Positions 3,638 through 52,782 of a DNA stretch of 59,932 nt are shown piece by piece (positions within the stretch are counted from its first letter, which is position 1; each line of letters opens with the position of its first letter). The translations under genes and the position numbers were made by a program. Where the stretch lies: IMG/VR virus record IMGVR_UViG_3300042560_001663, positions 1-59,932 of that record; one strand, written 5' to 3'. The DNA comes from a virus (taxonomy: Duplodnaviria > Caudoviricetes). Below the pieces are notes generated by a model that was given only the letters and a program-made list of their open reading frames with translations, was not told the origin of the DNA and made no database searches.

Positions 3638-3644
3638 TATTTAG
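3638..3644 (-). promoter_or_regulatory. T4-type late promoter variant (CTAAATA)
   Basis: TAAATA core 22 nt upstream of the tail-fibre ATG. Confidence 0.5.
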
Positions 3645-9600: not shown

Positions 9601-12600
9601 ATGTATATGTAAATGATGTAGATGAAAGAGAAGTTATTGTTTGTTTTCCATTATACTTACTGGAAGTAATTTCAATTTGATTATTAAAAATTACCTCAGA
9701 ATCTATATTAATTTTTTTCTTTTCTTCTGGAAGAACATCGTCATAAACTGGAGTTAATTTATAATATAACTTGTTTGGAATATCATCATTAATAGTTAAA
9801 GTAACCTTTGCATCACTTGTAACTCCAACTATTCCCGTTTTTTGAACTTCGAATTGATTTTTTTTCTTACTTGATTCAAATTTTTGAGTAAAATTGCTGT
9901 CTTTATAAAAATCTAAACTAAATGCTGGATATCTTTGAGATTGATTCGCATAAGAAAGAGAAGAATCTGCTAAATCAAAAATAGCAGTTGAATTTTTATA
10001 GAGTGTTATTGGTGGATTAACTGGTAAAATCGTTCCAAATGAAGAACTTGTAATTCCTACAGGTATTGGTTTTATTATCGTTGCAGTATAAAAAGTATCG
10101 GATAATTTGATATTATTTTTATCTACTCTTATTACATAATATTCTTTCTCACTTTGTAAACCACCCGCGGGTGAAGATGATGTATGTATTACCTTTTGTC
10201 CGTTATATAACTGGTGATCTTGTATGGTGATAGTATTCGTAAATGTATTGACACCGACAGAAACAAACGTCTTTGGATTGATTCCTATTTTTCTATTGTA
10301 ATCATTATATTTTACAGTAAATGTCGTCGAAATTGATGGATTAACGTTAACATAAACGGTATCATTATTATTCAATCCGTGAGTTGATGAGCAAGAAACT
10401 GTAACAAGATTTCTTTCAATTGTTCCAGAAATTACATCAAAATTAGTTTTAAAGCTATGATAGACTCCAGATCCCAATCCCATAAAATATAATGTAGATT
10501 GAGATCTTTGAGTACTAGCAATACCAACAAAAGTACCAGTAGATCCAAGTCCAACTTGAACCGTAGATATACCAATCAAATCATTAGAAATTTTTGCAAC
10601 ATAAACGTTTGATTGGTTGGCAAGAGTGGTAGTTCCAATTCCTGTTGATGAAACTACTAAAGATAATCCACCATTGTTTGAATAGGTAACAAGATCACCA
10701 GTCTCTAGTCCGTGATTTGGAATATAAATTGTTTTAGTTGGAATAAAAATTTGAGTTATTCCTGCTCCAGGATTGCTAAATGTGATAGTTGTACCAATAC
10801 CAACTCCAGATAGAGATCCAAGTCCAACAGAATCTATTGGATCAAAATATAATTCGGTATTAATTCGATAATCATAAGAAGTTTTATAACCTACATTAAT
10901 AATTAATTTTCTCGAATCCTCCTTGAGTTGAGTTGATGATGTATGAGCAGAACCAATTGTCCCCTGATATGATCGAATAACTCTAATTCTTGAATTTAGA
11001 CTATCAACATTGAGGACTTTTAATTTTTCATTCTCAATAGAAAGAATATCATTTTCTTTTATATTTGGATATTTTAAATTACCAGAAACCTTGATGTAAG
11101 TAATAATTCCAGTCACTCCAGCACTTTCAATGCCAGTGACCACAGTTCCTGAATTTATAACACTTAGAATATTTGTTGATATTCCTGCTTTATATGACCC
11201 CTCTATCAAAGAAGATGTTGTATTTAATCCATAAACAGACACAAAGTCACCATTTTTAAAATTATGTGGTTCATTTGCAATAATTATGTAATCACCATTA
11301 TTTCCTGTTGGGTATATTTCTGCATTAGAAATAGTACTAGATGCAACACTTACTGAAGATACATATTTTCCCTCAATTTTGGAAATTTTGGCACTTAAAT
11401 TATAACCTTGAGTACCTGTATTATTAAAAATAATAGAATCATTAACTTTATAGTTTTGCCCTCCCGTTACAATTCCTATTGATTCTACTGAACCAGGAGA
11501 TGCAAATTCAACATCTATTGTTTGATTTAAATTGTTTGGTGCAGTTATGTATGAATATGAAGCTTCATCATTTATTAAATTATAAAAATAAGTGTTTCTT
11601 AACCACCCAGTCTCATTTAAGTCAATATCATCCTGATTTGATTTTTTTGCAAAATTAAATTCTATTGGTTTTGATTTAAAGTAATTACCAATTAAATATG
11701 GAAATTTTGGTTGCTTGTAAGTTGCAAATTTTCCACTACTATCAGAAAATTCTTCTAAAGTAGAAAAGTATGCATAAGTTCCTTCTGGAAATTCTGGAGT
11801 AACGCAAAATCTTCCATTATTCTCATCAAGAAATCTATCATCACTTTTTTTATAAAAGGTAAAATCTTCTACAAAAAAACCAAGATCGAAAGAATTTATA
11901 GATGGCCTATTTGGTTTTGGAGATTCATCACGATCATATCCGGACTTAAGTTGAGTGACAACTCCTCCCGTTTTTGTTATATACCCATATGGACCATAAA
12001 TTGGATTACCATCATATGCCCACCCAATAATGGGAGAATGACTTGTTGTATCTACTTCTACATTATTTTGCTTTATTAAATCAGTTTTTCCATATACTTT
12101 ATTTCCACTCTGATCTGATGGTTGAATTATCTCTCTTAATTTTCTTGGAGCATATAAATGGGAATATTGAAGTCCAAAGCTCTCATTTAACCCATTGGAA
12201 ATAATACCATCATCAGAAGTTATTGAAGAATAATATTTTTTAAATAAATTAATTGTCCAAGATTGTATCTTTGCTACAAATTCTGCCGAAGAACCTGAAG
12301 GAATTATATCTACAGAGGTTGATTCTGGTGAATATCCTATCCCATTTTCAATTACTTTTACAGATGTCAATTGATTATTGGTGATTATTGGAGTTAAAAC
12401 AGCGCCAGTTCCTGTTCCATTTATTATTAAACTTGGAGGAGAATTATATTCTGATCCAGTATTATCAATTAACACTTCAGTAATTTTCCCGTCAGTAGAA
12501 ACGATGGGATTTAACTGTGCAGATTTTCCAGATTTTAAAACAAAAGATGGTTGCCTATAAAAATTAATTATTTCCGAGGATCCATATCCAATTCCACCCG

Positions 12601-15600
12601 AAGTTAAATGGACAGATGTAATTTGTCCCCTAAAAATTGGTTGGACTTCAGCATTAAAAGACTTATTTCCTATAGATGAAATCCCAATATTACCTATAAT
12701 TTCTACTTTAATTTCTGGGTAATTGAATACATGAGTTCCTAATCCAGATGAATTAAATTTAATATATTGTTTGGTATTATAATAAAAATCATAATTTACA
12801 CTACCAATTCCAATGGCAGATAATTTAAAAGAATCATCATTGATTTTTGTTACAATATATTCTGTATTTGTTGTTAGGCCACCAATAGGAGTAAAATCTG
12901 TCGTATATACAACTTTTTCTCCAGAATTATAATTATGATTTTTTATTTCAATTTGAGATAATGATGTATTAATCCCAATATGTGTTGTCGTTCTTTTTTT
13001 ATTTTCATATCCAGATCCTGGATTTTCGATATTAATAGACCCAATAATCGATTTTTGATCATATGATTTAATTTTATGATTACCTATGCCATAGGATAAT
13101 AGAGTAATTGTATTAATTCCAACAATAGCATCATCTAAATTTTTATGAAGTTTAATTGTGAAATCGTCTATTATGGAAACAAAATATGATGCATCCGTAG
13201 ACAATCCTCCAACACCTCTTTGCCCATCTGTTTTGTAAATTACTCTTTCTGCATTTCTAAACTTATGATAAGTTGTAAATCCAATTGTCGATAATGCACT
13301 TCCAATGCCAATTAAATTTGCATTTCCTTGAGAATTAAAAATAGACTCGTGTTCGACCAACTTCATATTTGCATATGCTTTGGCACCAATACCATTTCCA
13401 CCTGTTACTTTGATTATGGGAGTATCTAGATAGTCAAATCCTGGATCTATAATTCTAATTTCTTGAAGTGATCCTCTAACAGCACAAAATCCAGTTGCTC
13501 CAGTGCCAATTGAATCTGTTATACTTAAAATTGGTGGATTAATGACATCATAATTGGATCCGGATGCAGTTACTTCTATTTCTTCTATTTTTCCATAATA
13601 TATGGATTCACTGGATTTGTAATTTAAAATTTCTACACCATTAAGTAAAATTCCGGTAAATCCTGGTTTTGTATCATATACATTACCGTCATCAATTGGC
13701 GAAGATAGTTCTCTGAGAAGTTTTTGTGTATTTAAAGTTTTAAATTTAAATTCATAAATTTCAATTTTATTGTTAGTTACAGTAGTATTGTCTAATAAAG
13801 ATATGAATATATTATTGAAAATATTTGTTCTACTCTTTGCCAAACTAATTCTATTTTCATCAATTCTTTTTACGAAATAAATTCCTTCATCAAACAAGAA
13901 ACTTTTAGTAGTTTTTATTGTAGAAGTAATTCCTTCAGAATCCGTACTTTGTGCGTAAATTACTTCTGGAGTATAATAAATGCAATCTCCAGTATAAAAA
14001 CCATGATCCCAATTTGATGTTATGGTAAAAACATTTCCAGAAAATGTTCCAGAAAAAACAATAGATCTGTCAGTAGCATCTAGTGTTTGTTTATAATATG
14101 ATGGTATGGATGGAGATGTGATTAATGTTTTTTCTCCCAATTTATACACATTCTGTGTATTTGAATTTATTTTTGAAATGTTAGAAAAATACGTTGAATT
14201 TGTTTTTGAGATATTTTTTTTAATTGTATATCTATCTGATAGATCTATAATACCTTGACCCTTTATCGTAAAAGTAGAACTTGAAATTAGATCAATAATT
14301 GTCGAAAGTATTTTTGATCCAGAACTTGAAATTATACTAATTTCATCTCCTATTTTAAATATATTTTTATTTTCTGTAGTTATATTATAAGTATCACCTG
14401 TTCCACGAGAAAGAATTGATTTTACATTATATGATATTGGAATATTAAAGAACCAATCTTTAGAATAAACATCATTAGAATTTACTCCCAAAGTCCTAAT
14501 TACAGAAGTGTCATTTTTGTAATGATATCTCGTATTTCCTAAAATTTCTGTAGAGTTTAAAACAGAAGTTACTCTTAATTTTACCAAAGATCCGTCTGTA
14601 TTATATGCATGAGCATATGTATTAATCCCAATTGATGCAAAATCTGGAATAGTTTTAGTTACTCCCGAACAACCAAAAAATTGTGTTAAAGATTTTGAAC
14701 TGTAAGTAACAACACCTGTAGTTTGATCTCCATAGTTTACCAACAATTCTCCATTTATTGGGAATCCTACTGTAGAATCAACATCAAAAACAGTTGCACC
14801 AGAGGAAACAGGACCAACTATTTTTGTTGTGGGATGAACAGTGAATTTTCCAATAGTTGCACCATTAGCAATCAAATCTCTATTATATCCAGAATCCAAA
14901 CTTAATTTATAATAAGTATTACCAATTCCTGAAATTATTTTTTCAACATAAGTTATTGGACTGCGAGCATATGATATATTCAAATAGTCATTCTGATACA
15001 AAGTTTGATTTGTTAAATCTGAAGGATCGCCAAAAATACTTTCAACAACTATATCATTAGTTAGTCTATAATGAGCATCTGATGGCCTGAAAAGATTTTC
15101 TTTTGGGTTAATAACCTTAACTTCCTTTCCATATAAAACTTTAAATAAAATTTTAAAAGATTCATCTGTTCCTTTGCTCTGATAAAAATCTTTAATTTGT
15201 TTTAAAAATATTGATTGATCCAATTCAGTGTATAAAGATCTATCTTCAAATCCAGGAGAAAGTTGATATTTTATTTTAGATAAAAATTCTTTAAGAAATA
15301 AAGAACTTAAATTGATAATTTTGGTTCCTTTAGAATGTGTTGCTGATTCAGTGGATTTAAATGTTAACTGATCTGGAATATTTTGTGTCGTGTAAGAGGT
15401 TATTCCACTAAATCCTCTTACACATCCTGTAAAAGAACTGGTCGTAATTCCTGTATATGTAATTATTTCGTCATCAATTTGAATTAACCCATAAGATTTT
15501 GGAAAGTTTGATGTTCCCTCTTTGTTTAATCCCAAATCTATTGGAATAGTTGTATCGATATCTGAAATAGTAGATGAAAGAAAGGCGTAATCTGTACTAT

Positions 15601-15784
15601 TTGTTAAGTTATCTACTTTTACATATTGATCTATGTTTTGGATGAGATCAACAGGAGCACTTGTAAATTCCTGCGAAATATAATATTGCGAAAGAAATTC
15701 TGATATTAATGGAAACTCTTCTCTGACATAAGAAGGAAGTTGATTTTTAACAATGTTGCTGAACTGAACTCTCTTTTCTGTCAT
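3641..15784 (-). CDS. Giant baseplate wedge structural protein (gp7-like / 'VrlC-like' cyanophage protein), 4047 aa
   Basis: Directly downstream of gp25-gp6; N-terminus QLPSYVREEFP...FYQSKGTDESFKILFKVLYG and IQDSDFYQNFSYSIKS motifs typical of T4-like wedge proteins; many G.GY beta repeats; YHYH-like segment HSPIIGWAYDGNPIYGPYGY. Confidence 0.75.
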   Translation of the reverse strand: MTEKRVQFSNIVKNQLPSYVREEFPLISEFLSQYYISQEFTSAPVDLIQNIDQYVKVDNLTNSTDYAFLSSTISDIDTTIPIDLGLNKEGTSNFPKSYGLIQIDDEIITYTGITTSSFTGCVRGFSGITSYTTQNIPDQLTFKSTESATHSKGTKIINLSSLFLKEFLSKIKYQLSPGFEDRSLYTELDQSIFLKQIKDFYQSKGTDESFKILFKVLYGKEVKVINPKENLFRPSDAHYRLTNDIVVESIFGDPSDLTNQTLYQNDYLNISYARSPITYVEKIISGIGNTYYKLSLDSGYNRDLIANGATIGKFTVHPTTKIVGPVSSGATVFDVDSTVGFPINGELLVNYGDQTTGVVTYSSKSLTQFFGCSGVTKTIPDFASIGINTYAHAYNTDGSLVKLRVTSVLNSTEILGNTRYHYKNDTSVIRTLGVNSNDVYSKDWFFNIPISYNVKSILSRGTGDTYNITTENKNIFKIGDEISIISSSGSKILSTIIDLISSSTFTIKGQGIIDLSDRYTIKKNISKTNSTYFSNISKINSNTQNVYKLGEKTLITSPSIPSYYKQTLDATDRSIVFSGTFSGNVFTITSNWDHGFYTGDCIYYTPEVIYAQSTDSEGITSTIKTTKSFLFDEGIYFVKRIDENRISLAKSRTNIFNNIFISLLDNTTVTNNKIEIYEFKFKTLNTQKLLRELSSPIDDGNVYDTKPGFTGILLNGVEILNYKSSESIYYGKIEEIEVTASGSNYDVINPPILSITDSIGTGATGFCAVRGSLQEIRIIDPGFDYLDTPIIKVTGGNGIGAKAYANMKLVEHESIFNSQGNANLIGIGSALSTIGFTTYHKFRNAERVIYKTDGQRGVGGLSTDASYFVSIIDDFTIKLHKNLDDAIVGINTITLLSYGIGNHKIKSYDQKSIIGSINIENPGSGYENKKRTTTHIGINTSLSQIEIKNHNYNSGEKVVYTTDFTPIGGLTTNTEYIVTKINDDSFKLSAIGIGSVNYDFYYNTKQYIKFNSSGLGTHVFNYPEIKVEIIGNIGISSIGNKSFNAEVQPIFRGQITSVHLTSGGIGYGSSEIINFYRQPSFVLKSGKSAQLNPIVSTDGKITEVLIDNTGSEYNSPPSLIINGTGTGAVLTPIITNNQLTSVKVIENGIGYSPESTSVDIIPSGSSAEFVAKIQSWTINLFKKYYSSITSDDGIISNGLNESFGLQYSHLYAPRKLREIIQPSDQSGNKVYGKTDLIKQNNVEVDTTSHSPIIGWAYDGNPIYGPYGYITKTGGVVTQLKSGYDRDESPKPNRPSINSFDLGFFVEDFTFYKKSDDRFLDENNGRFCVTPEFPEGTYAYFSTLEEFSDSSGKFATYKQPKFPYLIGNYFKSKPIEFNFAKKSNQDDIDLNETGWLRNTYFYNLINDEASYSYITAPNNLNQTIDVEFASPGSVESIGIVTGGQNYKVNDSIIFNNTGTQGYNLSAKISKIEGKYVSSVSVASSTISNAEIYPTGNNGDYIIIANEPHNFKNGDFVSVYGLNTTSSLIEGSYKAGISTNILSVINSGTVVTGIESAGVTGIITYIKVSGNLKYPNIKENDILSIENEKLKVLNVDSLNSRIRVIRSYQGTIGSAHTSSTQLKEDSRKLIINVGYKTSYDYRINTELYFDPIDSVGLGSLSGVGIGTTITFSNPGAGITQIFIPTKTIYIPNHGLETGDLVTYSNNGGLSLVVSSTGIGTTTLANQSNVYVAKISNDLIGISTVQVGLGSTGTFVGIASTQRSQSTLYFMGLGSGVYHSFKTNFDVISGTIERNLVTVSCSSTHGLNNNDTVYVNVNPSISTTFTVKYNDYNRKIGINPKTFVSVGVNTFTNTITIQDHQLYNGQKVIHTSSSPAGGLQSEKEYYVIRVDKNNIKLSDTFYTATIIKPIPVGITSSSFGTILPVNPPITLYKNSTAIFDLADSSLSYANQSQRYPAFSLDFYKDSNFTQKFESSKKKNQFEVQKTGIVGVTSDAKVTLTINDDIPNKLYYKLTPVYDDVLPEEKKKINIDSEVIFNNQIEITSSKYNGKQTITSLSSTSFTYTLPQTPENIFYADSSSNIEYNTDSINALGPIFEVEIVNKGRNYYALPGISTIVSQFGKNALLEASSYSIGNIKKTKINDIGFDFPSDFTLRPSISLNQIVKIEPLSSLKSVGINSFGRGYNTSPKLLVFDGKTNELIPEIDLKYTLGSNDVEIRKNAYSLSNVSPIILPIQNSNGVGIGSIKYNSLNKEVTVTLSVGFSTSDSFPFKVNDKVMIENVSVGVGSTGIGYNSENYNYKLFTLTSVTENRGGIGSVSYSLNGLLSESQVPGNYDPVNSSGRIIPEKYFPTFNVELQKNNYFIGENIKSNSTFGYVDGWNPITNQLRAVSKENFIPGEIVEGLTSKTQGIASLVDTTDSFFNLDSSSLVNNGWQTSAGFLNLNSERIQDSDFYQNFSYSIKSSVSYDSWKDAVSTLNHTTGFKKFSEYQLETKNSNSMSIGISTEKTYVDVVVDIVGSADLNCVTDFDLVKENSLSISERYFSDEITFSSRILTDYFESIGNRVLSIDDISSQFSSNPRFTRFSEVHRFSLFNARAQKYVTFVSDRRFTGQRQLMLVSLLHSKGVGYLNQYARLESSYDLGSFDFFIEGTEGVLTFNPVKYSINNYNITTLSYNLKDSMLGIGTSSFGDFVIIKTSSEFVSSGSTSIVGIGTTYNSAKVLVEIAGSNGQYEFDELNIVHDGINVELLQYGQITNDSLNPYSSSGLGTYHPYISGSELKIDFYPNTGIAVTINTFQTLLGGTFFGIDAYDMKHAELQGISTSILSSISPTETPIIEYLKDYDCSYCLIQVADTTNNRYQLSEIVLLDDQTDENPGETYILEFGNIETNSGLGTFGFRKNGLVTELTFTPLPNIDTRIVGFSNALRHQDDEKDILSLNNGSIETNYGTYFGTESDIKRDFPLNHKGNQIFKRDFDGSSPLIVNTSLDTITIPNHFFVTGEKITYTNPGAGTTQSIGIGTTDFGVGIGITNKLPSTVYIVKVNENTIKLAKSAEDALKFIPKILDLTSVGIGTTHTFTANNQNAKAIIAIDNIIQSPITSTAQTTILSKNVFTTDDLIYVAGITSFFGGDLIKIGNEIMKIESVGVANTNIFRVRRPWMGTTIAGYSTGTLVTKVVGNYNIIDNTLNFSEAPYGNVPLSNSTESPDERDWVGITTSSKFQGRTFLKSGISDSANETYYRNYIFDDISEQFNGKTKSFTLKSNGSNTSDISSENSIILINDIFQGPGLTNNYYLTESIGITSITFVGGATSIAYDVNTASIPAGGIIISVGSTEGFGYQPLVSAGGTAIVSGLGTISSVSIGNSGSGYRSGLQTVRVGVATSSTDTLSIQFIGTAIVNNGHIVGVSITNPGTGYTSSNPPYVIIDDPLSYSDLPLIYSADSLSGLGSQATIDVVVGQGSSVIDFEIKNLGYGYGQGEILTVSVGGTVGIPTDPTKTFKEFQISIQKTITDKFTGWSIGELQVLDTPENLFDGSRTIFPLLVAGSLISLRSAIGSNINIQDNLLVFLNDVLQVPGIGFEFAGGSVITFTEPPRIGDTCKIIFYKGTGSVDVIERNILETIKSGDELTIGYDAILGQTELLQETERTVDFLKSVDLVKTLPYYGPGLSNDSRLVRPVTWCRQTEDKIINEKEVGKDRELYEPIINPFAYIIKSVGIGSTTIYVDNLKPFFDSQNENDVSLTFQKSIKLISQDPKSGAIGTAIVSGMGTILSVAISDGGVGYTTATVSFGSTIGVNTSTQAFGSAIISAAGTVAGISITNPGSGYTSTNPPSVLISSPTPIIETNQVSSYSGDSGIIVGFGTTTQDSIDKFIFDLYIPEDSFLRNQSLVGTAITISSLNVNDYFVVYDSNVGLASTSIKSLDFDTNVIGVGTQFIDNVYQVDSIFVTETDVVGIGTTFVKRIYTRITGIGITIDFSSTNITFDSEVFKFDSLKTSGSGYTGIITTSPSFGNFSWGKIDLKNRSEENQFNFYGNMGIGGITTSAVVQRTSSLKFRNYIV

Positions 15785-15788
15785 TTGT

Positions 15789-17717
15789 TTATGATCTTAC
15801 TAAATTCCCGTTGTTTGTGTAACTTGATGAAACAATGTAATTTGATGCTGATGGATCTAATCCTGATGAAATTTCATCCACTACCATTTCAAAATTACTC
15901 TTACTAATATCTAGTTGCAAATATAAATCCTGCAATCCTATAACGTCATTTGATTTTGGTGTTACTGATATCTCAATAACAGGTTGCCCATTTTTTTGTT
16001 TTGCTGAAGTAATAATAATGGGATTGAGAGTAATAATCCCAGATGTGTAATTAATTGTTCCAGCATTTCTCCTCAAAATTGTTGGTGTAGTCGAGGACAT
16101 ATTTGGAACATTAAATAAAAAGATTGAACCAGTGGTTCTATTTGTATTTGGAATATCTGATAGGTAAACATCTTGAGAAATTCCACTTACTCTGAATGCT
16201 GTGGATTTTATATTATATCCACTCATACTATTAATATGAAATTCATTCCCAAATCCAATTGAATATTCAGCAAAACTATTCAAAGAAACTCCCAAGTCTC
16301 TTCTAATTTGAATATTTGTAATATTTGAAGTTACAGATTCGTGACTTTCGTCAATAATCTTTAAAAATTTACTATATTTAAATCTAGCACCATATTTGTT
16401 TAATTCTGTCGATTCTGCATACTTATTTGTATTTGATTGTACAATGTTAGAAACATAAGATGCACTAGGAGCAAGATTTGTGTTATAATAAATTTTTGAA
16501 TCGATTTCAATATAAAGATATTTTAAATCCAAAATTTCAGGAATAATACCAGCTACGGCATATTTTTTGAGTTTAAGTTTAATATTTTCTTTAACTAAAT
16601 TTGATAGAAAATCCCCACTTCTCGGTTTAATACTAATAAAAACTTTTCCATACTGTGGAGGAATTAATTCTTCACCACCAAAAACAGATATAGATTCTGT
16701 TTCTGGATAAATTTTTGATGGTATTAAAGTTTCATAGTCATTTGCAGTTACTGCTCTGTTTTGGGAAGAATATATTCTTGGTGCATATTTTTTAATAGAT
16801 TCTACAGATTCAATATTTTCTCCACCAGAAGCAACTAACCCAGTAGTTAAAAGAGATACTCCAGATGTAACCGTATATTCTGTAGAGTTTCTTGTATATG
16901 TTAATCTTCCCGAGTAAGAAAACTGTCCAACTCCATTTGCAGAATCACCATTTGTAACAATATAAGATACTTCTATATAATTTCCGTCTTGGAGGGCCTT
17001 CCCAAAAACATTATCTCCAAAAATTAGTTCATATCTTTCATCTTCAATTTCTTGCAAAAAATAAATCTCAGATTCTTTATCTATTTCAAAAAGACTATCT
17101 TGACGATTATATTTTATAGAAACTGATGACTGTTGATTATTTTTTATGATTACAGAAATTAAATCTGTATCAATTCCTATGTTAGGTAATATAATTTTTT
17201 GATTCGGATTTCTGGAGGTATATGTGAAATTAGATGTTAGCAACGTTCCTTCATAAATTGGAATATCATTGAATGATGCAATATTATCAAAAACAGGAAC
17301 TGTAACATCATCCCAAATCGAAAAAACAAAAGACTGATTTCCAAAAGTTCCGGAGGTACTCGCTACAGGGCCTTTTTTGAGAGTTAATGATACTGGAGTT
17401 GGTTTAATATCTGAACAATCTACAAAAAAACTTATTGTTGCTCTTGCTGCTTTTTTTGAACGGGGTATATATCCAATATTTCTTGCAAGTGCAACAACAT
17501 TTTCTCTAAGTGTTGCACTATCGATGAATACCTCATTTGCAACCATATTTGCATTATATGAGGTAATATAGGTATTATATGCCAACACATCAAGAATAGT
17601 CGAAAGATTAGACCCCTCAAAGTCATAATCTGTGAAATTTGAATTTGCTTTGAGGTAATCTCTAAGTGTGGTTTTAATCTGGTCAAAATCCAGATTCGTA
17701 AAATTTACTAATGGCAT
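15789..17717 (-). CDS. gp6: Baseplate wedge subunit gp6
   Basis: LDFDQIK...FTDYDFEGSNLS.LDVLAYNT...E.FIDSATLRENVVALARNIGY.P.S; FGDNVFGK; QNRAVTANDYE: hallmark T4 gp6 motifs. Confidence 0.92.
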   Translation of the reverse strand: MPLVNFTNLDFDQIKTTLRDYLKANSNFTDYDFEGSNLSTILDVLAYNTYITSYNANMVANEVFIDSATLRENVVALARNIGYIPRSKKAARATISFFVDCSDIKPTPVSLTLKKGPVASTSGTFGNQSFVFSIWDDVTVPVFDNIASFNDIPIYEGTLLTSNFTYTSRNPNQKIILPNIGIDTDLISVIIKNNQQSSVSIKYNRQDSLFEIDKESEIYFLQEIEDERYELIFGDNVFGKALQDGNYIEVSYIVTNGDSANGVGQFSYSGRLTYTRNSTEYTVTSGVSLLTTGLVASGGENIESVESIKKYAPRIYSSQNRAVTANDYETLIPSKIYPETESISVFGGEELIPPQYGKVFISIKPRSGDFLSNLVKENIKLKLKKYAVAGIIPEILDLKYLYIEIDSKIYYNTNLAPSASYVSNIVQSNTNKYAESTELNKYGARFKYSKFLKIIDESHESVTSNITNIQIRRDLGVSLNSFAEYSIGFGNEFHINSMSGYNIKSTAFRVSGISQDVYLSDIPNTNRTTGSIFLFNVPNMSSTTPTILRRNAGTINYTSGIITLNPIIITSAKQKNGQPVIEISVTPKSNDVIGLQDLYLQLDISKSNFEMVVDEISSGLDPSASNYIVSSSYTNNGNLVRS

Positions 17718-18119
17718 TTACCTAGTTGGTTGCAATACAAATTGTAATTGTTGTGTAGGAACATCTGCTCCAATAATATTGTATACTATTTTCACATCGA
17801 AAGAGTTATTATCATAGTTTGGATATGCTTGTACATCAATCAATTGAACTCTCGGTTCATAATTTTGTATGGATTGTTTAATTTCATCGACAATCATTGA
17901 TGCAGAAATATCATCGATATTCTCGAAGAGTGTTCTAGAGATATTTGAACCAAAATTTTCATTAAAAAATTTCTCTCCAGGAATTGTAAATACAATATTT
18001 CGAATTGAACGAGAAATAGCAGTTTCGTTTTTAAGGGCAATCAAGTCACTATTCAGGGGACTAACCTGAAATGACATACTAATATCTTTAAACCCTTGAT
18101 TAACCCTTTCTAAAGGCAT
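17718..18119 (-). CDS. gp25: Baseplate wedge subunit gp25
   Basis: AISRSIRNIVFTIPGEKFF...FGS...IQNYEPRV: GPW/gp25 family signature; adjacent to gp6. Confidence 0.9.
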   Translation of the reverse strand: MPLERVNQGFKDISMSFQVSPLNSDLIALKNETAISRSIRNIVFTIPGEKFFNENFGSNISRTLFENIDDISASMIVDEIKQSIQNYEPRVQLIDVQAYPNYDNNSFDVKIVYNIIGADVPTQQLQFVLQPTR

Positions 18120-18146: not shown

Positions 18147-18400
18147 TACCCTTTTATGGATCCATAAATGGGTTCTGTTCCATAATTCCAATCGTCATAA
18201 TCGTCATCATTTCTAATTTTTTCGTGAATTTCGTTCTGATGAAAGAAATCGTGTTTTTTGGGTGTAATGTCATCATTGTTGATTTCACGAAGCATTTTTT
18301 GGTTCAAAATTTTTTCTTCCCAACCATATTCTGTTGCCAAAAATTTAGTTCCCCATTCATTTTTCATAAAATTTTGGTCTTTATCGATGTGTTTAGTCAT
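18146..18400 (-). CDS. Hypothetical phage protein (84 aa)
   Basis: AGGAG Shine-Dalgarno upstream of ATG; fits gene packing. Confidence 0.7.
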   Translation of the reverse strand: MTKHIDKDQNFMKNEWGTKFLATEYGWEEKILNQKMLREINNDDITPKKHDFFHQNEIHEKIRNDDDYDDWNYGTEPIYGSIKG

Positions 18401-31531: not shown

Positions 31532-32227
31532 TCACTCTGCTTCATATTCTTCTCTAACAGGTGCATTGCTACGATCCACAAAAGATTGTCTTGTGACTTT
31601 TCTTGATGCAGATTTAGTTGCTGGTTTCTTTTTACCTTGAGTTGCATCCTCTATATCTTTCTCAAGTTGATTCGCAAATCTTGATAGAAAACCAGTTCTT
31701 GCTAACTTAACATCACTTGGATTTCTTGCTGCTTCATCAACTTCATATTCTTCTCTTGCAACATCAGATTGATACCTTTTTGCACTTGCCATTTGCTTTA
31801 ATCGTGCAAGTTGCTGCATCTTTTTGATTTTTCTTTTCTCTTCTGGTGTTGGTGGTGCTTGTGTTTCAGTTTCTTCTTTTGTTAAATGTGGTGCTGCTTT
31901 GTATCCTTTGTGTCCTGCCTGATAGTTTTGCCATGCTTTTGTGTTTGCTTTTCTATCTGCTGCAGTTACAGTCATTGAAGTATCTTCTGGTGCTTTCTTT
32001 TCACCACCATACACAACCTTCTCACAAATACCTACAAACTCCTCAAATGTTCTTGCTCTTGGATTATAGTAAGGAGTGACATCAGAACGATACTGAGTTC
32101 CACCTACATTCTTACCAAGATGCTTTTCTTGTCTTCTCTTTTTCTCTAGTTCGTATTGCTGTTTTGCGGTTTTTGGTTTAGGAATAGGTTGTCCAGTGAT
32201 TCCTACTTCTGTTTTGTCCTTTGCCAT
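31532..32227 (-). CDS. Charged, likely internal-head/late protein (231 aa)
   Basis: K/E/Q-rich; internal RTFEEFV..CE and repeated xEE sites; perfect TATAAATA upstream. Confidence 0.6.
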   Translation of the reverse strand: MAKDKTEVGITGQPIPKPKTAKQQYELEKKRRQEKHLGKNVGGTQYRSDVTPYYNPRARTFEEFVGICEKVVYGGEKKAPEDTSMTVTAADRKANTKAWQNYQAGHKGYKAAPHLTKEETETQAPPTPEEKRKIKKMQQLARLKQMASAKRYQSDVAREEYEVDEAARNPSDVKLARTGFLSRFANQLEKDIEDATQGKKKPATKSASRKVTRQSFVDRSNAPVREEYEAE

Positions 32228-32230
32228 TGC

Positions 32231-32255
32231 TACAAATACTTTTTAGGTATTTATA
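32231..32255 (-). promoter_or_regulatory. Late promoter TATAAATA embedded in a leader hairpin
   Basis: tataaatac-ctaaaaa-gtatttgta ending 3 nt before ATG. Confidence 0.75.
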
Positions 32256-34897: not shown

Positions 34898-35254
34898 TCA
34901 ACGAGACATAATTGCTTTTAATCTTGCTCTTTTTGCTGTTACTTCTGCACCTGCTTCGTGTTCCATTTCTCCGTGTGCTTGACGGATTTGCATACCTTTC
35001 CAACGGGCAGATGCTCTGGCAACCTGTTTGTTATACTCATTTGGTTGCATTTTAGGATGTTGCTCTGCTTGTAGTTCTCTCTTTATTTCTTTTTTTAATG
35101 CTTCTCTTTCTTGTGCTGCTGCTTGGTTTTCTCTTTGTGCAGATTGGTAGTCAGCAACTTTTTGTTTTTGCTTTGCCATTAAATCAAGTTGTCTCTGACG
35201 CAACTCTTGTCTGCGGGATTCAATGTCTTCATTAAATTGCTGAAAAGTCTTCAT
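34898..35254 (-). CDS. Coiled-coil protein with capsid-targeting-like N-terminus
   Basis: Begins MKTFQQFNED; Q/E/K/R-rich; late promoter upstream. Confidence 0.65.
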   Translation of the reverse strand: MKTFQQFNEDIESRRQELRQRQLDLMAKQKQKVADYQSAQRENQAAAQEREALKKEIKRELQAEQHPKMQPNEYNKQVARASARWKGMQIRQAHGEMEHEAGAEVTAKRARLKAIMSR

Positions 35255-45903: not shown

Positions 45904-46259
45904 TTGAACCCCTTTGCCTCTTGTTTTCTATCTAGGACTTCAATGTGACTTAGAAAGTTTCCATTACGGTTCCACCATAAAGATTTTGCATCTTCATAGT
46001 TGTCAAATACTTGATAAGTGCCGTCATTATAAACTACCTTATAATCGTGAAGAAGATAAGGTTCATCTGATGTTTGCTTAAAGATTTTCATTTGTTGATT
46101 GTTGTAAGAAGAACCCATAACCAAACCTCTAATACTATAAGAACAATGATTTCAACAAAAACTGGTGGAAGTGTCATTTGGGGTTCTTTTATATGAGGGT
46201 ATTATACGACAAAAAGCACCTAATTTCAAGGGCCCCCTGTTCCAGTTTGTCAAGGGTCC

Positions 46260-46955
46260 TTATGTTACTCTAACTCTACCCATCTCCCAACCATCACCGG
46301 GACATTCTACACTTCTTTTATTAATTTGCCCATCATTCCACCATTTTGTTCCTCTTACTTTTTGAGATAATATTTTAATTGCTTCTTTTTGTTTTTCACT
46401 TTGAGGTTTTCCTTTTTTTGACTGACTTATTTTTATTTTAGTTTCTTCACTAACAATTTTATTCAAGTTCCATTTTCTTATTTTTTCTTTATGCTCTTCT
46501 GAAAGTTTTCTTCCAATATTCCACTTATTTCCTATTTTTGATTTTTTTAGTTTTTCTATAGTTTGTTTGGAATGTTTTTTAACTCTATGTTTTTCAAGTA
46601 TTTGTTTATGTTTTTCAGAAAGAGTTTTACCTTTATGAATTTTACTCATCTTTTGTTTAGTTTCATCAGTCATTCTCAATCCAGTAGAACCTTCACCACC
46701 ATCAGTTTTATTGCGAAGAATACCAGTTCCCAAATCAATTCTTCCAAGCACATCAATCATATAGATTTCGTGCTTGAATGCGTCTTCTTCCGTTAGATTT
46801 TGTTTAAGAAAAATTATCCTTGATTTATCAGTTGGTTTTCCAACTTCACCCTTAACTTTCTTATATGCTCTATTTTCTTTACCTTTGCCTATGTAATAGG
46901 GAGTTCCATCCTCACGCAAATACGCATAAGTATAAAATCTATATGGATTTACCAT
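46260..46955 (-). mobile_element. Free-standing GIY-YIG-type homing endonuclease with NUMOD3 repeats
   Basis: FYTYAYLREDGTPYYIGKG...R...E...LRN.TDGGEG; repeated (M/L/H)SEETKxKIS...KG motifs; C-terminal KWWNDG...PGDGW.MGR. Confidence 0.8.
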
Positions 46956-46964
46956 AGTTCTACT

Positions 46965-47044
46965 CTTAAACTAACCGCATTAGTATTTATATTACAAAGG
47001 AGGAGATTTCTCTCCTCCCACCTTACAGATTGCGGTCAGTTAAG
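46965..47044 (-). promoter_or_regulatory. Leader switch: outer stem + GAAA hairpin + TATAAATA late promoter
   Basis: Arms 47031-47044 / 46965-46979; inner hairpin 46999-47018; TATAAATA 46984-46991. Confidence 0.75.
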
Positions 47045-48842
47045 GCATTAGTATTTAGATGAACAATCCAAGAAATAAACATATCGTGCAGAATTATCAG
47101 GAGCATATCGTATTACATTACAACGATTATCATACTTATCAACCACTTCAAATGATGGTTCCAATGGTTTACCACCCGAACCAAAGTAAGAAAGTGCAAT
47201 TAAAATAACAATGAAGACGACAGAGGCACCAACAAATACACCAACACCACGGAGCAACTCTTTGAGAGCATACTTATCTTCGGGAGTCATTTTCATCATT
47301 CTTTTACCTCAACTGTGGGAACATCAATCCATTTACCATTTTCAAGGGATTGAAGTTTATATAACATACGAGTATAAGTAATCTCCTTGTCTCTAAAAGG
47401 TGGAATCACTCTCAACCAGTGTAGAAACTTCGGCATATCTTCGCAAGTTTCAACTCCTTTGATTTTTGTTTCAGTTTTTAGGTATCGTAGTTTCATAATC
47501 AATCATCCCACGGAGCTTTGCGTTGAAGTAGTTTAGCAAGATTTTCGTTGTATTGTGGTGGTTCATTCAATCGTTCTACAAGAGCATCAAAGTCCTTTGC
47601 AGGTAACACAATGCGTTCTGGTTTTGCACCTTTACCCCAGAACTTCTCAAACTCCCATTGATAGTTCATATCCAACCATCCACCATTTAGAGAATGCCAA
47701 AACTCTCCCCAGATGTGATAATCATCAAAACGAAATCCTTCGTGAGACATCAAACGATACCACCACCAAAATGGTGTATAACTAAGAAACCTATTGCCTA
47801 TAATAAGTTTATGGAAGTTCATTTCTTTGTCCAAGAATAAACATACATTTGCATCCAACCATCATTTAGTTCTGCCCACATTGCGTGAGGAAGTTTATAA
47901 GAATACTTTTTATCTCTCATCCAATAGGTGTATGCTTCCCAGGCATTTCCTACACCCTGCCAACCCCAAATAAAGTTTCTCCATTTGTCATTATCATACA
48001 CCCATTCATTATCAGTATCAAAAATATTAAATTTAAAATGAGGTTTGAAATCGTATTCAAAAAAATGTTTGTTATACTGTTTGCGAGTGTAGTTTTTGTA
48101 TCTTTGACGGAGATTGATAAGAGTGTTAATCATACAGTCTCATCCCATTCCTCATATCTGGTATTGATTTTACCAGCATTATTGAAAATATTCAAGTGTC
48201 CTATGCGACCATCCTCAAAATAGAATGCCATCCAAACGTGCTCACCTTCATCCATCACCTCATAATGATAGGATTTGATGTTGTCAAGTAGAAACTCGTC
48301 TGGGTTGAATAGTGTTTTATCGTCCATTATTTTGCCTCCCAATACTTACCATCAGGGCCACAAAGAAACTCATACTCCCTCTCATAAGCACAACGATAAC
48401 CATTAGTCATTTGGGACACAAGGTTCAAATCATTAGGACGAAAACACAAATCCCAGTTATCATTTTTTCTAAGAATGTTTTCTACCCAATTCATACGATA
48501 ATACTTACAATCTTTACAGAGTTTAGTCATTTTTCAATTTCTTTTTAAGTTGATATTCACTCAATTTTTCACCATCATAATTGAAAAATGGTTTCTGTTC
48601 CGTGCAAATTTGAGATTTGAAATAAGTCTTTCCAGACCTTTGTGGAAACTCACCTTTAACAAATTCTTGGACATAGTTAATTTCCCCCACACAATTAGAT
48701 TGAAGATCACAACCCTCAAAGTATTTTGGGTTTTCATTCATAAACTTCAAAGTTGCATCTACCAACCTTGTATCTGGTTTAACTGGTTCTGTTGAAACTA
48801 ATTGAAATCCAAATCGGTTAAGTATTTTGTTAAGTAAGTTAA

Positions 48843-49043
48843 TCATTTTTCAAGTTCCTCCGCAAGTTCATAAAGCATTCTAGCATCAACTACCATATCT
48901 TCACCATCACCAAAGTGATAGTATTGAAACTCATTCACAATCTCACGAACAGCAGTCGCAAGTGCTTCTCTCATATCATCTGTGGGTTCTACAATCAGTT
49001 CCCCACAAAATGCTTTCCAGATTGTTTGTGCTTTATTGTTCAT
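48843..49043 (-). CDS. Small helical protein, dispersed paralog family
   Basis: A..I......LA.A.RE.VN......L...A.ELE pattern shared with 49578, 54378, 54738, 57568. Confidence 0.7.
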   Translation of the reverse strand: MNNKAQTIWKAFCGELIVEPTDDMREALATAVREIVNEFQYYHFGDGEDMVVDARMLYELAEELEK

Positions 49044-49577
49044 CTTTTAAAAATAGTGCGTCAAGTCGTTCCCTATACAATCTTTCAAAATGTAATGTTA
49101 GTAAGTATTCATCATAAGTAATAGTCATATGATATTTACCTTTCAAAGTAAGAATAGTTTCCATATCTTTAACCTCAGTATGAGGCAAATTTAAAAACTC
49201 TTGATAGGTTATTAGTTTATCTTTATTTTCCTGAGGAAAATCAGGTTCTTGTGGAAAACCAAAATTAGTCATCTTTTCTTCTCAATCAATCTCTTCAATT
49301 TGAATAATGTCTCCAAGACGTTCCTCTCCTTTAACTAATTCCCCCTGTTTAGTGAAATAAAATTCAAGAAACTCATACGCATATGTATCTCCAAAATGAG
49401 TAATAAACTTAATATAACCTTCGTGTGGATTTCTCTTATTCTGTCTAAAATTCACACTAACTTTCTTATCAACAAACTTTGAGAGGTCAATTTGAGAAGT
49501 CATCAGGTGTCTGTGTGTATGAGAGTATTATAAGGCAAAAAGGGGTCTTGTGGAGACCCCCTGTGCCAGTTTAAGTG

Positions 49578-49745
49578 TCATTCTGCCTCCAGTTCGTCAG
49601 CAATATCAAGAATGTTTTTTTCGGTAATACCAATATATTTCAATTGATTTACCACTTCACGAAGAGTGGCAGCAAGAGTTTCATTACCACGAAACTTTGG
49701 TTTCCAGTAAGTATCAAGGATTGCTTGTATCTGGTGTTCAGTCAT
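49578..49745 (-). CDS. Small helical protein, dispersed paralog family (55 aa)
   Basis: Not in track. MTEHQIQAILDTYWKPKFRGNETLAATLREVVNQLKYIGITEKNILDIADELEAE; sits alone between two repeat elements. Confidence 0.75.
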   Translation of the reverse strand: MTEHQIQAILDTYWKPKFRGNETLAATLREVVNQLKYIGITEKNILDIADELEAE

Positions 49746-51019
49746 TAGAAAGTTCCTCTGTGTGTATGAGAGTATTATAGGGCATCAAGGGGCATCTGTG
49801 AAGTGCCTCTGTACAAGTTCTTCAAGTGTTTTCTATTCTCAATACAAACCATCCCTTCTTTGTCTGTTTTTTCTTTTCCTATCCATAAAATATTCAAGAA
49901 CACCAAATCCCATAGAAATAATAATATATGGAAGTAGGATTATCACAATAAATTCAATCATCAGGTGTCTCAACTATAATTGAAGTGTAAATGAGTTTGC
50001 CAAATACCAAAAGATTTCTCTCTCAACATATAAGCAATCACATCAGGAAGAAATCGTGTGTATTTGTCAAGAAATTCCCGTTCTTCAAGTTCTTCTGTTC
50101 CTTGTAGATAAAAATCAATATCTACAAACTTCTCCCATCTTTTCTGGAAATAATCTTCTGGATATGATGGAGAGTTATTGCGGGAGATTTGTAGGAAGAT
50201 AGTTCTACCTTCACCAGTCCCATAATAATCAATCACATAATACTTGTAGAATGGTTCAGTCATAATCCAATGTTTCTCACATATTCGTGTGCTGTTACTA
50301 TTTTTTGAAGGTCATTAACTTGACTTTTAAGTTCTTCAACTTCTTGTTTAAGTTCCCAAATATAATCCTTCAAGTTCCACTCAACATCACCAATCAGTTG
50401 AAATAGTTCTTCAAGTGTGAGTTCGTGATTGCGAGTTTCACTCCACTTTGCTCGTTCAGGTCTTTCACTCATAGTCATTATCCAATAAAGAGATTTGTAG
50501 AAATGTCGTAAAAGTATTGAGGTGGTTCGTCTGGTTTCTTTTCTGGTTCTGGTTGATAAGAACTTTGTGGTTTTTGTTGAGTTTTTAGATACTCTTTGAC
50601 TTCTTCCACACTCATTTCGTGAAGTTTTGGTTGTTCAGTCATTATTCTTCCTCACTCGTTCAAGAAACTCATCTGCTTGGTTACGAAGACCTTCAATCAA
50701 TCCCTCAATATCCTCAATCGCAATATTATTATACTCCCGATTGAGATATTCACAACGAATAGCATCAATCATACTTTCCATTGCAATAATCTGTTGATGC
50801 TCTGGTGTGATTGGTGTGCCGTGAGGAAGTCCAGAAGTTTCAAAATTGTGAAAGTCATTATATCGTTGCAGAATACGATTACTCTTCTCACGACGTTCTG
50901 CTTCCTCAAACATCGCATCAGGATAAGGTTCGCAGTCCATAATGTTCCTTTGATTTCTTCTATTATACAACAAAAAAGGGCACCTGTGAAGTGCCCGTGT
51001 TCCAGTTTGTTAGGTGTCC

Positions 51020-51721
51020 TTATGATATTCTAACTCTTTGAGAAGTGTCTATACCTCGTGCTCTTTGATATCCTGTTAAAGTTCCAGGATGAGTAATAAA
51101 TCCAGTTTCTAAACACATCCACTTTTGAGAATTTGTAATTTTAGCATTCTCACTTCTTTGTTCTTTACTTAACGCAAATATACCAACTCCAAGTTCTTTT
51201 GCTTTTTTACCACCTATTCCTGTTTTACCTCCTTTACTGCTTGCTTTTTTCTTTTCTTCTTCGGGCATAGAAAAAAATCCAACACCAAGTTCTTTTGTTC
51301 TTTGACCTCCTTTTTTACCTCCAATTTTTCCAGCATTTTTTGAAAATTGAATTCTCTCTTCTTTTGAATATTTGAAGAAACCTCTTCTTAATTCATAATT
51401 CATCTTACCAACTTCTCTTTTTACATCAAGAGAAACCATACCACCACAATTTTCATTCAAACACCATTTATCGGTATTAAAAAATGGTTTGATTAATCTT
51501 TCTTCAACTTTATTTGCTTCCAACCAACCTTCATCGGTATAATCAAACATCTCTAATATTTGCTTCTTTGGAGTATAAAGTTCCCAACACCATTTGTTTG
51601 TTTTTGGAGAACCCCAATAATCATCATTAAAATATTTTTCCTTATGAACTCCATAATAGTAATATGGAACTTCTTCAAAAGTAATTTTATACAAGTATAT
51701 TCTTGGACTTTGTGAAGTCAT
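51020..51721 (-). mobile_element. Free-standing GIY-YIG-like homing endonuclease
   Basis: IYLYKITF...YYYGVHK...YWGS...E..LI...CLNEN catalytic-domain pattern; repeated GGK...KELGVG.F..S.EE modules. Confidence 0.7.
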
Positions 51722-51729
51722 CGTAATCT

Positions 51730-51810
51730 TGTTAGAACGGCATTATTATTTATAATAGAAAAGGTGCCCGAAAGCACCTAATCTGTCCGTAGAGAATTGC
51801 CGTTCCAACA
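51730..51810 (-). promoter_or_regulatory. Leader switch: outer stem + UUCG hairpin + TATAAATA late promoter
   Basis: Arms 51798-51810 / 51730-51742 (13 bp, one G-U); inner hairpin 51762-51779; TATAAATA 51747-51754. Confidence 0.75.
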
Positions 51811-52782
51811 GACATTTTTATTTATCAGTATCTTCTTTATTCTGTTTTTCTTTGAGTTTTTTTAATTGTTCTCTGCCATAATTCGTTAATTCGTGTTTTT
51901 TGTTGCGGAGTTCTTCTACTTCTTCTGGATTGAGTAGAAACCCATCAGGAATGTGACCGTATTCTTCAATCATTGTTGTTTATAAAAAAATAAATGTATC
52001 CAACGATTAATCCAATAGGTAGCAGTTACAAGAAACAACCATAATCCGATAAGACCAAAAAATAGAATAAACTCTTTAAGTTGTTCATTAGACATTTTTT
52101 TCACCCATATCGTTCATTTTGTTCCATAGCATATTCTTTTTGATATTCCAGTTCCCTTTCAAGATACTCAATTTGTTCTTTGAGTTCTTTATTTTGCAGA
52201 TAGAGTTCCTCCAAGTGTGATGTGAGTTTATATGCGTTAATTTCGCACATTTCATAGACACCATCGGTTGTAAGGTCTCCAAAGATAGTTCTCCAATCGT
52301 CGGTTCTGTCAGTCATAATATGTATTACAATTCCCATAATTTAAATAATACCAGAACAGTTCTCTCATTCTATCATCGTCTGTAAATCCGTCAAGATGGT
52401 TCCACATATGATTTCTCCAACTATACACACAATACTCAAAAAGATGGATTGATGTATAGATGTTCCACTTTTTCCAAGTGTCATTGTTCATCGCAGTTTC
52501 CTTTTTATTTTGGTAAGGCAATCATTAAAACCTTCTACACTACACTCAACATAAGCATTTTGACTTCCTGCTGCTGATTGTTCTTTCGGTAACCATTCTT
52601 CAATCTGTTCTACAAGTGTTTCAATGTTCTGCCCTGATGGATTGTTGTTGGTAAAGATTTCATCCCACCAATCAGCAATAATCTCATAAAGAGTAGTGGG
52701 TTTTGGTTTTTCTACTTTTTGATACTTTTCTCCACGAAAATAGATACAATCTCCGTCTTTGAGAATAACAGAGGGGTCAATT

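Follow-up and report, generated by a model that had tools for sequence, protein, structure and literature searches.

For T4 I-TevI, I-TevII, I-TevIII and segB, and for Aeh1 mobE, occlusion of the ribosome-binding site (RBS) that is relieved by a nested late promoter is an established mechanism (PMC2988022), and an earlier note on the DNA studied here had rightly pointed to the I-TevI case. RBS-sequestering hairpins are described for the T4 late genes soc, e, 25 and 26 as well (PMC2988022). Here we analyse a leader element of ~110 nt, subsequently named the cassette, which precedes two homing endonuclease genes (HEGs) in the phage sequence IMGVR_UViG_3300042560_001663. The window, as we call the whole stretch analysed, is this complete IMG/VR virus record of 59,932 bases, with an estimated completeness of 27%. 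In our view each site is probably a copy of a discrete leader cassette of free-standing HEGs, whose RBS mask would be bypassed by a nested late promoter. The carriers of the cassette are freshwater T4-like cyanophages (Kyanoviridae-type).

Three further described systems bear on this element. For cyanophage-like 'fractured gene' loci in the Global Ocean Sampling (GOS) metagenomes, Dassa et al. (2009; PMC2677866) reported hairpins in the 5′ untranslated region of free-standing HEGs, both GIY-YIG and Vsr-like: a hairpin lies upstream of the start in 15 of 16 loci, 10 of them include TATAAATA, and two conserved MEME motifs are complementary on the stem. The authors see in the hairpin a mask on translation like that of Aeh1 mobE. 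PeSL elements are small conserved intergenic cassettes of promoter and terminator, found in hyperplastic regions of T4-type phages, where they mark the borders of modular exchange (PMC2839356, PMC4122927). Cyanophage S-PM2 makes an antisense RNA, CfrI (~225 nt), which overlaps an HEG and psbA (PMC2984593); the same source gives NATAAATA as the reported late promoter of cyanomyoviruses, which carry homologues of gp55, gp33 and gp45. The full-text literature on cyanophage HEGs, late promoters and antisense or small RNA that we searched describes no nested terminator, twin boxes or portability of a module. The principle is thus already known, from the T-even masks and from the Dassa et al. element in cyanophage-like loci; the cassette is, judged by its sequence, an elaborated portable variant.

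A nested leader precedes both homing endonuclease genes

The two genes and the parts of their leaders are as follows.

46260–46955, minus strand: HEG1, 231 amino acids; NUMOD3 8e-12; phrog_314 'homing endonuclease' 2.6e-14
51020–51721, minus strand: HEG2, 233 amino acids; phrog_314 homing endonuclease 5.6e-8

46952–47063, minus strand: whole HEG1 leader cassette; covariance-model match 92.3 bits, E 8e-14; fold −34.5 kcal/mol
47052–47059, minus strand: site 1 box1, TCTAAATA; homology to other cassettes begins at 47058/47057 (BLAST)
47031–47047, minus strand: site 1 outer helix, 5′ arm (anti-RBS strand), from minimum free energy (MFE) pairs
47020–47046, minus strand: site 1 alternative local hairpin hp1 (GCCUUA...UAAGGU), from the fold of the upstream part alone
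46998–47019, minus strand: site 1 inner GC hairpin, terminator-like; 9 pairs, GAAA loop, then UUUG
46984–46991, minus strand: site 1 box2, TATAAATA, T4-type late promoter motif by sequence
46961–46979, minus strand: site 1 3′ arm; covers the AAGAG Shine-Dalgarno-like stretch and stops 5 nt before AUG 46955

51716–51830, minus strand: whole HEG2 leader cassette; covariance-model match 91.6 bits, E 1e-13; fold −35.5 kcal/mol
51819–51826, minus strand: site 2 box1, GATAAATA; overlaps the stop codon of the upstream open reading frame (ORF); left homology border 51825 (BLAST)
51798–51813, minus strand: site 2 outer helix, 5′ arm, from MFE pairs
51785–51813, minus strand: site 2 alternative hairpin hp1 (GUCUGU...ACGGAC), from the fold of the upstream part alone
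51762–51779, minus strand: site 2 inner hairpin, terminator-like; 7 pairs, UUCG loop, then UUUUCU
51747–51754, minus strand: site 2 box2, TATAAATA, by sequence
51726–51742, minus strand: site 2 3′ arm; stops 4 nt before AUG 51721

As the earlier note had proposed, both minus-strand HEGs carry a nested leader: inside an outer helix lie a GC hairpin with its U-run and, after these, a perfect TATAAATA. Read from 5′ to 3′ on the coding strand, the cassette consists of an ATAAATA-type box, the 5′ arm, the GC hairpin with its U-run, TATAAATA and the 3′ arm with a Shine-Dalgarno-like stretch. Several measures of that proposal had to be corrected: MFE folding gives outer helices of 17 pairs at site 1 and 16 at site 2, each with 1–2 bulges, where 13–14 bp had been stated, and the 3′ arms end 5 and 4 nt before the start codon instead of 8–9 nt. 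As the helices extend this far, the Shine-Dalgarno-like stretches AAGAG and AAGA lie inside them, and a stable RNA helix including the Shine-Dalgarno and start region is found at both sites. The folds reach −34.5 kcal/mol (z −4.8) at site 1 and −35.5 kcal/mol (z −7.2) at site 2, which 0 of 200 shuffles equalled in either case. The perfect box is present at both sites between the two strands of the helix, although it does not directly adjoin the 3′ arm as had been thought, 4 nt lying between them. The tetraloop hairpins (GAAA and UUCG) with a short U-run were seen at both sites as described, and so was the UAAUGC.GUU that both share after the box. A conserved mini-ORF starting in this 'TAATGC' was considered and rejected, as many elements have ATTGC or other letters there. 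New with respect to that note are the ATAAATA-type upstream box, the alternative 5′ hairpin, the sharp borders of the module and a shared 3′ module.

The likeness to the T-even masks described in PMC2988022 is close: a helix covers the RBS on RNA from upstream promoters, TATAAATA lies inside it so that late RNA would lack the 5′ strand, and the regulated gene, a homing endonuclease by its NUMOD3 and phrog_314 matches, is embedded among same-strand upstream genes, here presumed early. In contrast to the T-even hairpins, which that source presents gene by gene, with no shared portable module mentioned in the text available, we find one homologous module of ~110 nt. It recurs before at least five HEG types, encloses a terminator-like hairpin and has a second box and an alternative 5′ hairpin. 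The function of the T4 and Aeh1 masks has been tested; that of the cassette is predicted from sequence. The cassette also agrees with the hairpins of Dassa et al. (PMC2677866) in that a hairpin with TATAAATA lies upstream of the start in several free-standing HEG families, a comparison made with their textual description; the text available mentions no inner terminator, upstream box, covariance model or module borders.

The leader is an RNA family with covarying helices

Relatives were fetched from IMG/VR: for HEG1 273 were confirmed and 80 loci kept, for HEG2 there were 32. TATAAATA lies 26–38 nt before the ATG in 98 of the 107 relatives with a usable start, and ATAAATA takes this position in 5 more. 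The 109 upstream regions represent 88 distinct sequences, 83 of which have the box at −27 to −40 (L013, L025, L032, L091 and L111 were dropped for box position). When the 5′ region of each element was paired with its own box-to-ATG region without any alignment, the mean was −23.4 kcal/mol and 83/83 reached −15 or lower; non-cognate 5′ regions yielded a mean of −10.7 kcal/mol, with 108 of 820 at or below −15. Omitting L018, L053, L068 and L078, which have a different stem design, left 79 sequences for a MAFFT alignment, and RNAalifold recovered the outer helix on this plain alignment, 11 of its 12 pairs having changes on both sides. These two tests are free of model-fitting bias.

Run over the window with filters off, a covariance model built on the 79-row MAFFT alignment gives two matches, at the two HEG sites (92.3 and 91.6 bits); the score then drops to 16.9 bits with E 2.3. 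Searches with this model, which derives from homologues, also found further copies in related loci, in large contigs and in the isolated phage S-SRM01; in 100 related loci there are 109 matches, so that additional covarying homologues are plentiful. The claim that the stems differ while their pairing is kept was borne out across these homologues: in the model-fitted alignment of 86 distinct rows 96.2% of the cells are paired and 21 of 22 pairs show double changes, a count that comes from an alignment fitted to the model, is biased toward it and to that extent must be held against our interpretation. The covariation score is 0.751; shuffles give 0.252, with none of 500 as high, and slid partners 0.055–0.125. 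Furthermore, the helices contain 112 G-U pairs vs 29 A-C mismatches, which would read G-U on the opposite strand, and the coding strand is more stable than its complement in 77 of the 83 elements. The excess of G-U pairs together with the stability of the coding strand suggests that selection acts on coding-strand RNA and not on duplex DNA.

Comparison with Rfam 15 gave no match at gathering score across the whole window, so the family is absent from Rfam; in the region 44–54 kb the sole match was isrD (E 0.59), distant from both sites. Five HEG1 relatives (L018, L053, L065, L068 and L078) have a leader of another, unrelated design that follows the same logic: the stem GTCTTGGCGG...CGCCAAGAC reaches the start codon and (T)ATAAATA stands between the arms, without the usual GC terminator hairpin.

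The cassette is found almost exclusively before endonuclease genes

In the flanks of the related loci further cassettes precede GIY-YIG (PF01541), HNH/NUMOD3 (phrog_655), HEG1-like and HEG2-like ORFs, as well as ORFs of the 'YVYYSYEEYGRGY' type, which match phrog_314. In five large contigs, together 990 kb and two of them rated 100% complete, the model has 21 matches, and 21/21 directly precede an ORF of 135–298 aa; these ORFs fall into four recurring types. In S-SRM01, an isolated phage of the Kyanoviridae, there are 6 model matches, all before HEG-like ORFs with one assignment being weak: gp030 and gp066 (HNH endonuclease), gp075 (NUMOD3 protein), gp297 (homing endonuclease), gp114 and gp091. 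The product of gp114 is annotated as 'translation initiation factor 2'; with matches to NUMOD3 (3e-39) and phrog_314 (3e-17) it is, by sequence similarity, an endonuclease of this kind despite the annotation. The weak assignment is gp091, with a phrog_314 match only (E 0.0019). On NC_070963.1, gp114 lies at 62515–63273, gp075 at 51291–51992 and gp297 at 192466–193167; as the annotated starts of gp075 and gp297 fall inside the model match, the true starts are probably ~50 nt downstream. All copies examined in whole records thus directly precede HEG-like ORFs, as expected for the RNA family travelling with nucleases that the earlier note had suggested. Among named phages, blastn matched the site 2 element in S-SRM01 only and the site 1 element in none.

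In order to remove ascertainment via proteins, IMG/VR was also scanned by DNA pattern, with a core of 25 letters from the element. This core has at least 119 matching stretches, and 80 loci among the matches listed contain 81 matches. Three of these have no ATG in the locus and three precede ORFs cut after 1–2 residues, which leaves 75 assessable copies; among the matches listed, 74 of the 75 precede an ORF that matches an HEG reference (BLASTP E ≤ 1e-5). The lone exception among these 75 is L150, where the cassette stands before a 31-aa ORF. This locus (reverse strand, ~3950–4150) has a canonical cassette, and its 31-aa ORF, with a strong AAAGGAG site, does not resemble an endonuclease; the cassette may have been left behind after loss of the nuclease or be reused by another gene. 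In another contig, G005 (the contig of L004), the region 29–100 kb is a syntenic relative of the window with nine cassettes, and those at 51849 and 67051 share identical arms and precede paralogous HEG1-type genes.

Proposed working of the leader

The sequences show the architecture of the leader, its covariation as RNA of the coding strand, its near-exclusive link to HEGs and the sharp borders of the module, and at this level they support the interpretation of the earlier note. By analogy with T4 I-TevI, segB and Aeh1 mobE we infer promoter activity, termination and translational repression. RNA from the upstream genes, presumed early from sigma-70-like motifs only, would mostly halt at the inner hairpin. 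RNA that reads through would hold both arms, and its outer helix of 16–17 pairs would bury the ribosome-binding region, so that no nuclease is made. Late in infection, transcription of the gp55 type would begin a few nt past TATAAATA, downstream of the 5′ arm; since this late RNA lacks the 5′ arm, the mask could not form and the RNA would be translatable. The upstream context of the HEGs consists of same-strand genes and sigma-70-like motifs. A role in terminating or insulating transcription from upstream is plausible for the inner hairpin, and the one at site 2 looks like a fair intrinsic terminator. To speak of a 'switch', as had been done, is a misnomer: the state would depend on which promoter made the RNA, not on refolding or a ligand.

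Folding predictions were compared in 77 canonical elements, that is, the 83 minus L018, L051, L053, L065, L068 and L078, which have another design. The predicted openness of the RBS (−14 to +3) has a mean of 0.57 in late RNA vs 0.35 in read-through RNA, and the late RNA has the higher value in 73 of 77. At our two sites the late leaders fold weakly and no better than shuffles (−12.1 with z −1.4 at site 1, −6.5 with z −1.0 at site 2). One metatranscriptome run (X24) contains 8% of the sampled words, as contigs (without starts or ends) and mostly from relatives at 90–95% identity; it lacks cover over HEG2 and is uninformative on the expression of this gene.

Two promoter-like boxes and an alternative 5′ hairpin

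Box2 reads TATAAATA in 75 of the 77 canonical elements and would, from its sequence and by analogy, act as a promoter at both sites of the window. The 10 nt before it hold 4–7 T family-wide. In addition, a TAAATA core is found 61–95 nt (mode 68–72) before the main box in 77/77 elements, directly before the 5′ arm; this upstream box reads NATAAATA in 59 and NCTAAATA in 18 of them. That it is conserved merely as the stop codon of the upstream gene was rejected, because the stop lies at many different offsets. When the upstream part is folded without the 3′ arm it forms hp1, in which the 5′ arm takes part with its first bases, and downstream of it the terminator-like hairpin. An hp1 of −5 kcal/mol or lower is obtained in 74 of 77 cognate vs 2076 of 5852 non-cognate cases. 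With the 3′ arm included, the outer helix prevails, with −34.5 vs −21.2 at site 1 and −35.5 vs −22.9 at site 2.

Within the window ATAAATA is depleted (9 vs 21.8 expected) and 8 of its 9 copies are on the coding strand; AATAAATA is found at 18147–18140, 20 nt before the baseplate-wedge gene 17718–18119. Both the depletion and this position fit avoidance of a late-promoter signal and suggest that the box acts as a signal in this phage. Two ATAAATA boxes on the minus strand, at 32255–32228 and 35281–35255, are followed by a near-identical leader, CCTAAAA(A)GTATTTGTA..ATG, which holds an AAATAC/GTATTT inverted repeat. The ORFs behind these leaders, 31532–32227 and 34898–35254, have no family match; they probably represent two late genes that share one leader.

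The module is portable and has sharp borders

Pairwise comparison of loci whose nuclease families and flanks are unrelated shows the element alone as common sequence, from box to ATG, over 111 nt at 93.7%, 103 nt at 96.1% and 112 nt at 90.2%. The nearest relative of the cassette precedes the other HEG family in 15 of the 77 elements. Its left border is sharp: homology of paralogous cassettes starts at the upstream box, at 47058/47057 and at 51825 (BLAST). The two proteins of the window, HEG1 and HEG2, show no significant similarity to each other (BLASTP, best E 0.36), and their genes share a 3′ end with the same last codons, then AAACTGGAAC, a hairpin, a T-run and TATAAT.

46192–46277, minus strand: HEG1 3′ module, PeSL-like; last codons, AAACTGGAAC, hairpin with a −35-like hexamer in the loop, T-run, TATAAT
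50962–51037, minus strand: HEG2 3′ module, PeSL-like; terminator hairpin 50996–50978, TTCACA in the loop, T-run, TATAAT

These 3′ modules, with their hairpin, sigma-70-like −35 in the loop, T-run and TATAAT, resemble PeSL as described in the parts of PMC2839356 and PMC4122927 available, in which a strong sigma-70-like early promoter is joined to a stem-loop terminator. The 5′ cassette does not have this composition: unlike PeSL it has a late (TATAAATA) promoter motif, a long-range RBS mask and a tie to HEGs. A PeSL-like motif, AAACTGGNAC followed by a GC hairpin with TTGAAA, TCCACA or TTCACA in its loop, a T-run and TATAAT, has three copies on the minus strand of the window (46248–46192, 49572–49527 and 51008–50962), two of which are the shared HEG1 and HEG2 3′ ends. 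The exact pattern of the 3′ module was found in only 7 of 139 loci, one of which (L003) copies part of the window, so that the module is not general in its exact form.

The region is nearly whole in 23 lake or freshwater DNA runs. In two runs contigs connect 46179 to 47132 and thereby skip 952 bases including the HEG1 cassette, and contigs that connect 51825 to 48992 place cassette 2, from its upstream box, elsewhere. At the 46179/47132 joint there are no direct repeats longer than 6 nt. These contig joints, which have short sides, are consistent with mobile cassettes and suggest alleles that differ in the presence or position of a cassette.

Alternative explanations

The mask and late-promoter mechanism leaves the upstream box and hp1 unexplained. 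A different use of the cassette, which we consider rather unlikely, would be the release of its first half as a separate RNA of ~55–60 nt; by pairing in trans with the late HEG mRNA, at the leader, this RNA would limit the dose of nuclease, in addition to, or instead of, the cis mask. Such an RNA would present the 5′ arm in the hp1 loop, followed by the inner hairpin and the U-run, a shape that hp1 and a terminator-like hairpin would have in common with many antisense RNAs, and hp1 indeed reaches −5 kcal/mol in 74/77. Its source could be the upstream ATAAATA box as a second late promoter, or it could be the terminated 3′ end of the upstream mRNA. For the former speaks that the TAAATA core, present in all 77 elements with the NATAAATA fit in 59, is not fixed relative to the upstream stop and has the same A/T-rich ..TG context downstream as the main box; site 2 carries GATAAATA there. 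However, 18 of the 77 elements have a C at box position 2, including site 1 (TCTAAATA). The advantage of cognate hp1 is modest, as the 2076/5852 non-cognates also reaching −5 indicate, and arms are no more orthogonal within than between genomes (mean −10.5 in both; 19/130 vs 82/682 at or below −15), one contig even having two cassettes with identical arms. CfrI is, like the cassette, linked to an HEG in a cyanomyovirus and offers a precedent for control of HEGs at the RNA level, but according to the available account (PMC2984593) it is long and comes from the opposite strand, whereas the cassette lies wholly on the coding strand and any small RNA from it is hypothetical. If the trans-pairing were true, each portable module would combine a nuclease leader with its own antisense 'leash', and T4-like phages would have a class of trans-acting small RNA that moves with selfish nucleases.

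A role mainly at the level of DNA is, in our judgement, unlikely. Here the cassette would be a recombination module, the late-promoter counterpart of PeSL, via which HEG ORFs and flanks are shuffled, with an inverted repeat that has no more than an incidental bearing on RNA function. This would agree well with homology of paralogous cassettes that begins exactly at the upstream box (47058 and 51825), with loci of unrelated HEG families and flanks that have only the element in common, with the 15/77 elements whose nearest relative stands before the other HEG family, with the DNA contig connecting 51825 to another place and with the PeSL-like 3′ module of both HEGs. It does not account for compensatory changes that preserve the helices during sequence drift, nor for the bias of G-U over A-C (112 vs 29) and the more stable coding strand in 77/83, which indicate selection on RNA of one strand; moreover, portability and RNA function can coexist. 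A true riboswitch-like or protein-responsive switch, with hp1 and the outer helix interconverting on a signal, is highly improbable. Two mutually exclusive pairings are open to the start of the 5′ arm, a local one in hp1 and one with the RBS region; however, as soon as the 3′ arm exists the outer helix greatly exceeds hp1 in stability, and the interior is variable in sequence and length, with no conserved internal loop or bulge that would suggest a ligand pocket. As the inner hairpin can form in both states, termination is not switched and the element is not of the riboswitch type; Rfam yielded no match. An operator specific to one HEG, like that of I-TevI, was also considered and is unlikely because the same module serves unrelated HEG families.

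We therefore return to the RBS mask bypassed by a late promoter, against which, besides the upstream box and hp1, several observations have to be weighed. The late leader of site 1 is computed to be less open than the read-through form (0.14 vs 0.33), being one of the four exceptions, and the U-run after its inner hairpin is just UUU. The Shine-Dalgarno-like stretches AAGAG and AAGA are weak. Motif counts are not above chance either: TATAAATA occurs 3 times in the window vs 4.56 expected, and between 42 and 56 kb there are 6 terminator-like sites vs 6.7 expected; the weight of the finding rests on how the parts are combined and conserved, not on bare motif counts. Finally, the model has no match before several phrog_314 genes of S-SRM01 and of the two complete contigs, and the cassette is thus not obligatory for HEGs.

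The phage window

Every substantial gene of the window is on the minus strand. T4-type baseplate wedge proteins are encoded at 15789–17717 (phrog_219) and 17718–18119 (phrog_261), and the adjoining 4047-aa ORF (3641–15784, minus strand) is presumably a giant tail-fibre or structural protein. At the DNA level (megablast, 6.2-kb region) only short stretches of freshwater Synechococcus myoviruses matched. A tRNA search of the window found none.

Implications

Homing endonucleases are selfish genes, and the host phage must keep them harmless. T4 has an idiosyncratic mask for each HEG; here one sharp-bordered module of ~110 nt serves at least five endonuclease types and is spread over well over 100 lake-phage contigs, with a promoter–terminator module alongside at the 3′ end. 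This suggests that the control region itself is a portable part, which would make a newly inserted nuclease tolerable in presumed early transcription units. The cassette is also a covariation-rich RNA family that Rfam does not contain. With S-SRM01 there is an isolated phage with six copies, in which the mask, the terminator and the possible small RNA are directly testable.

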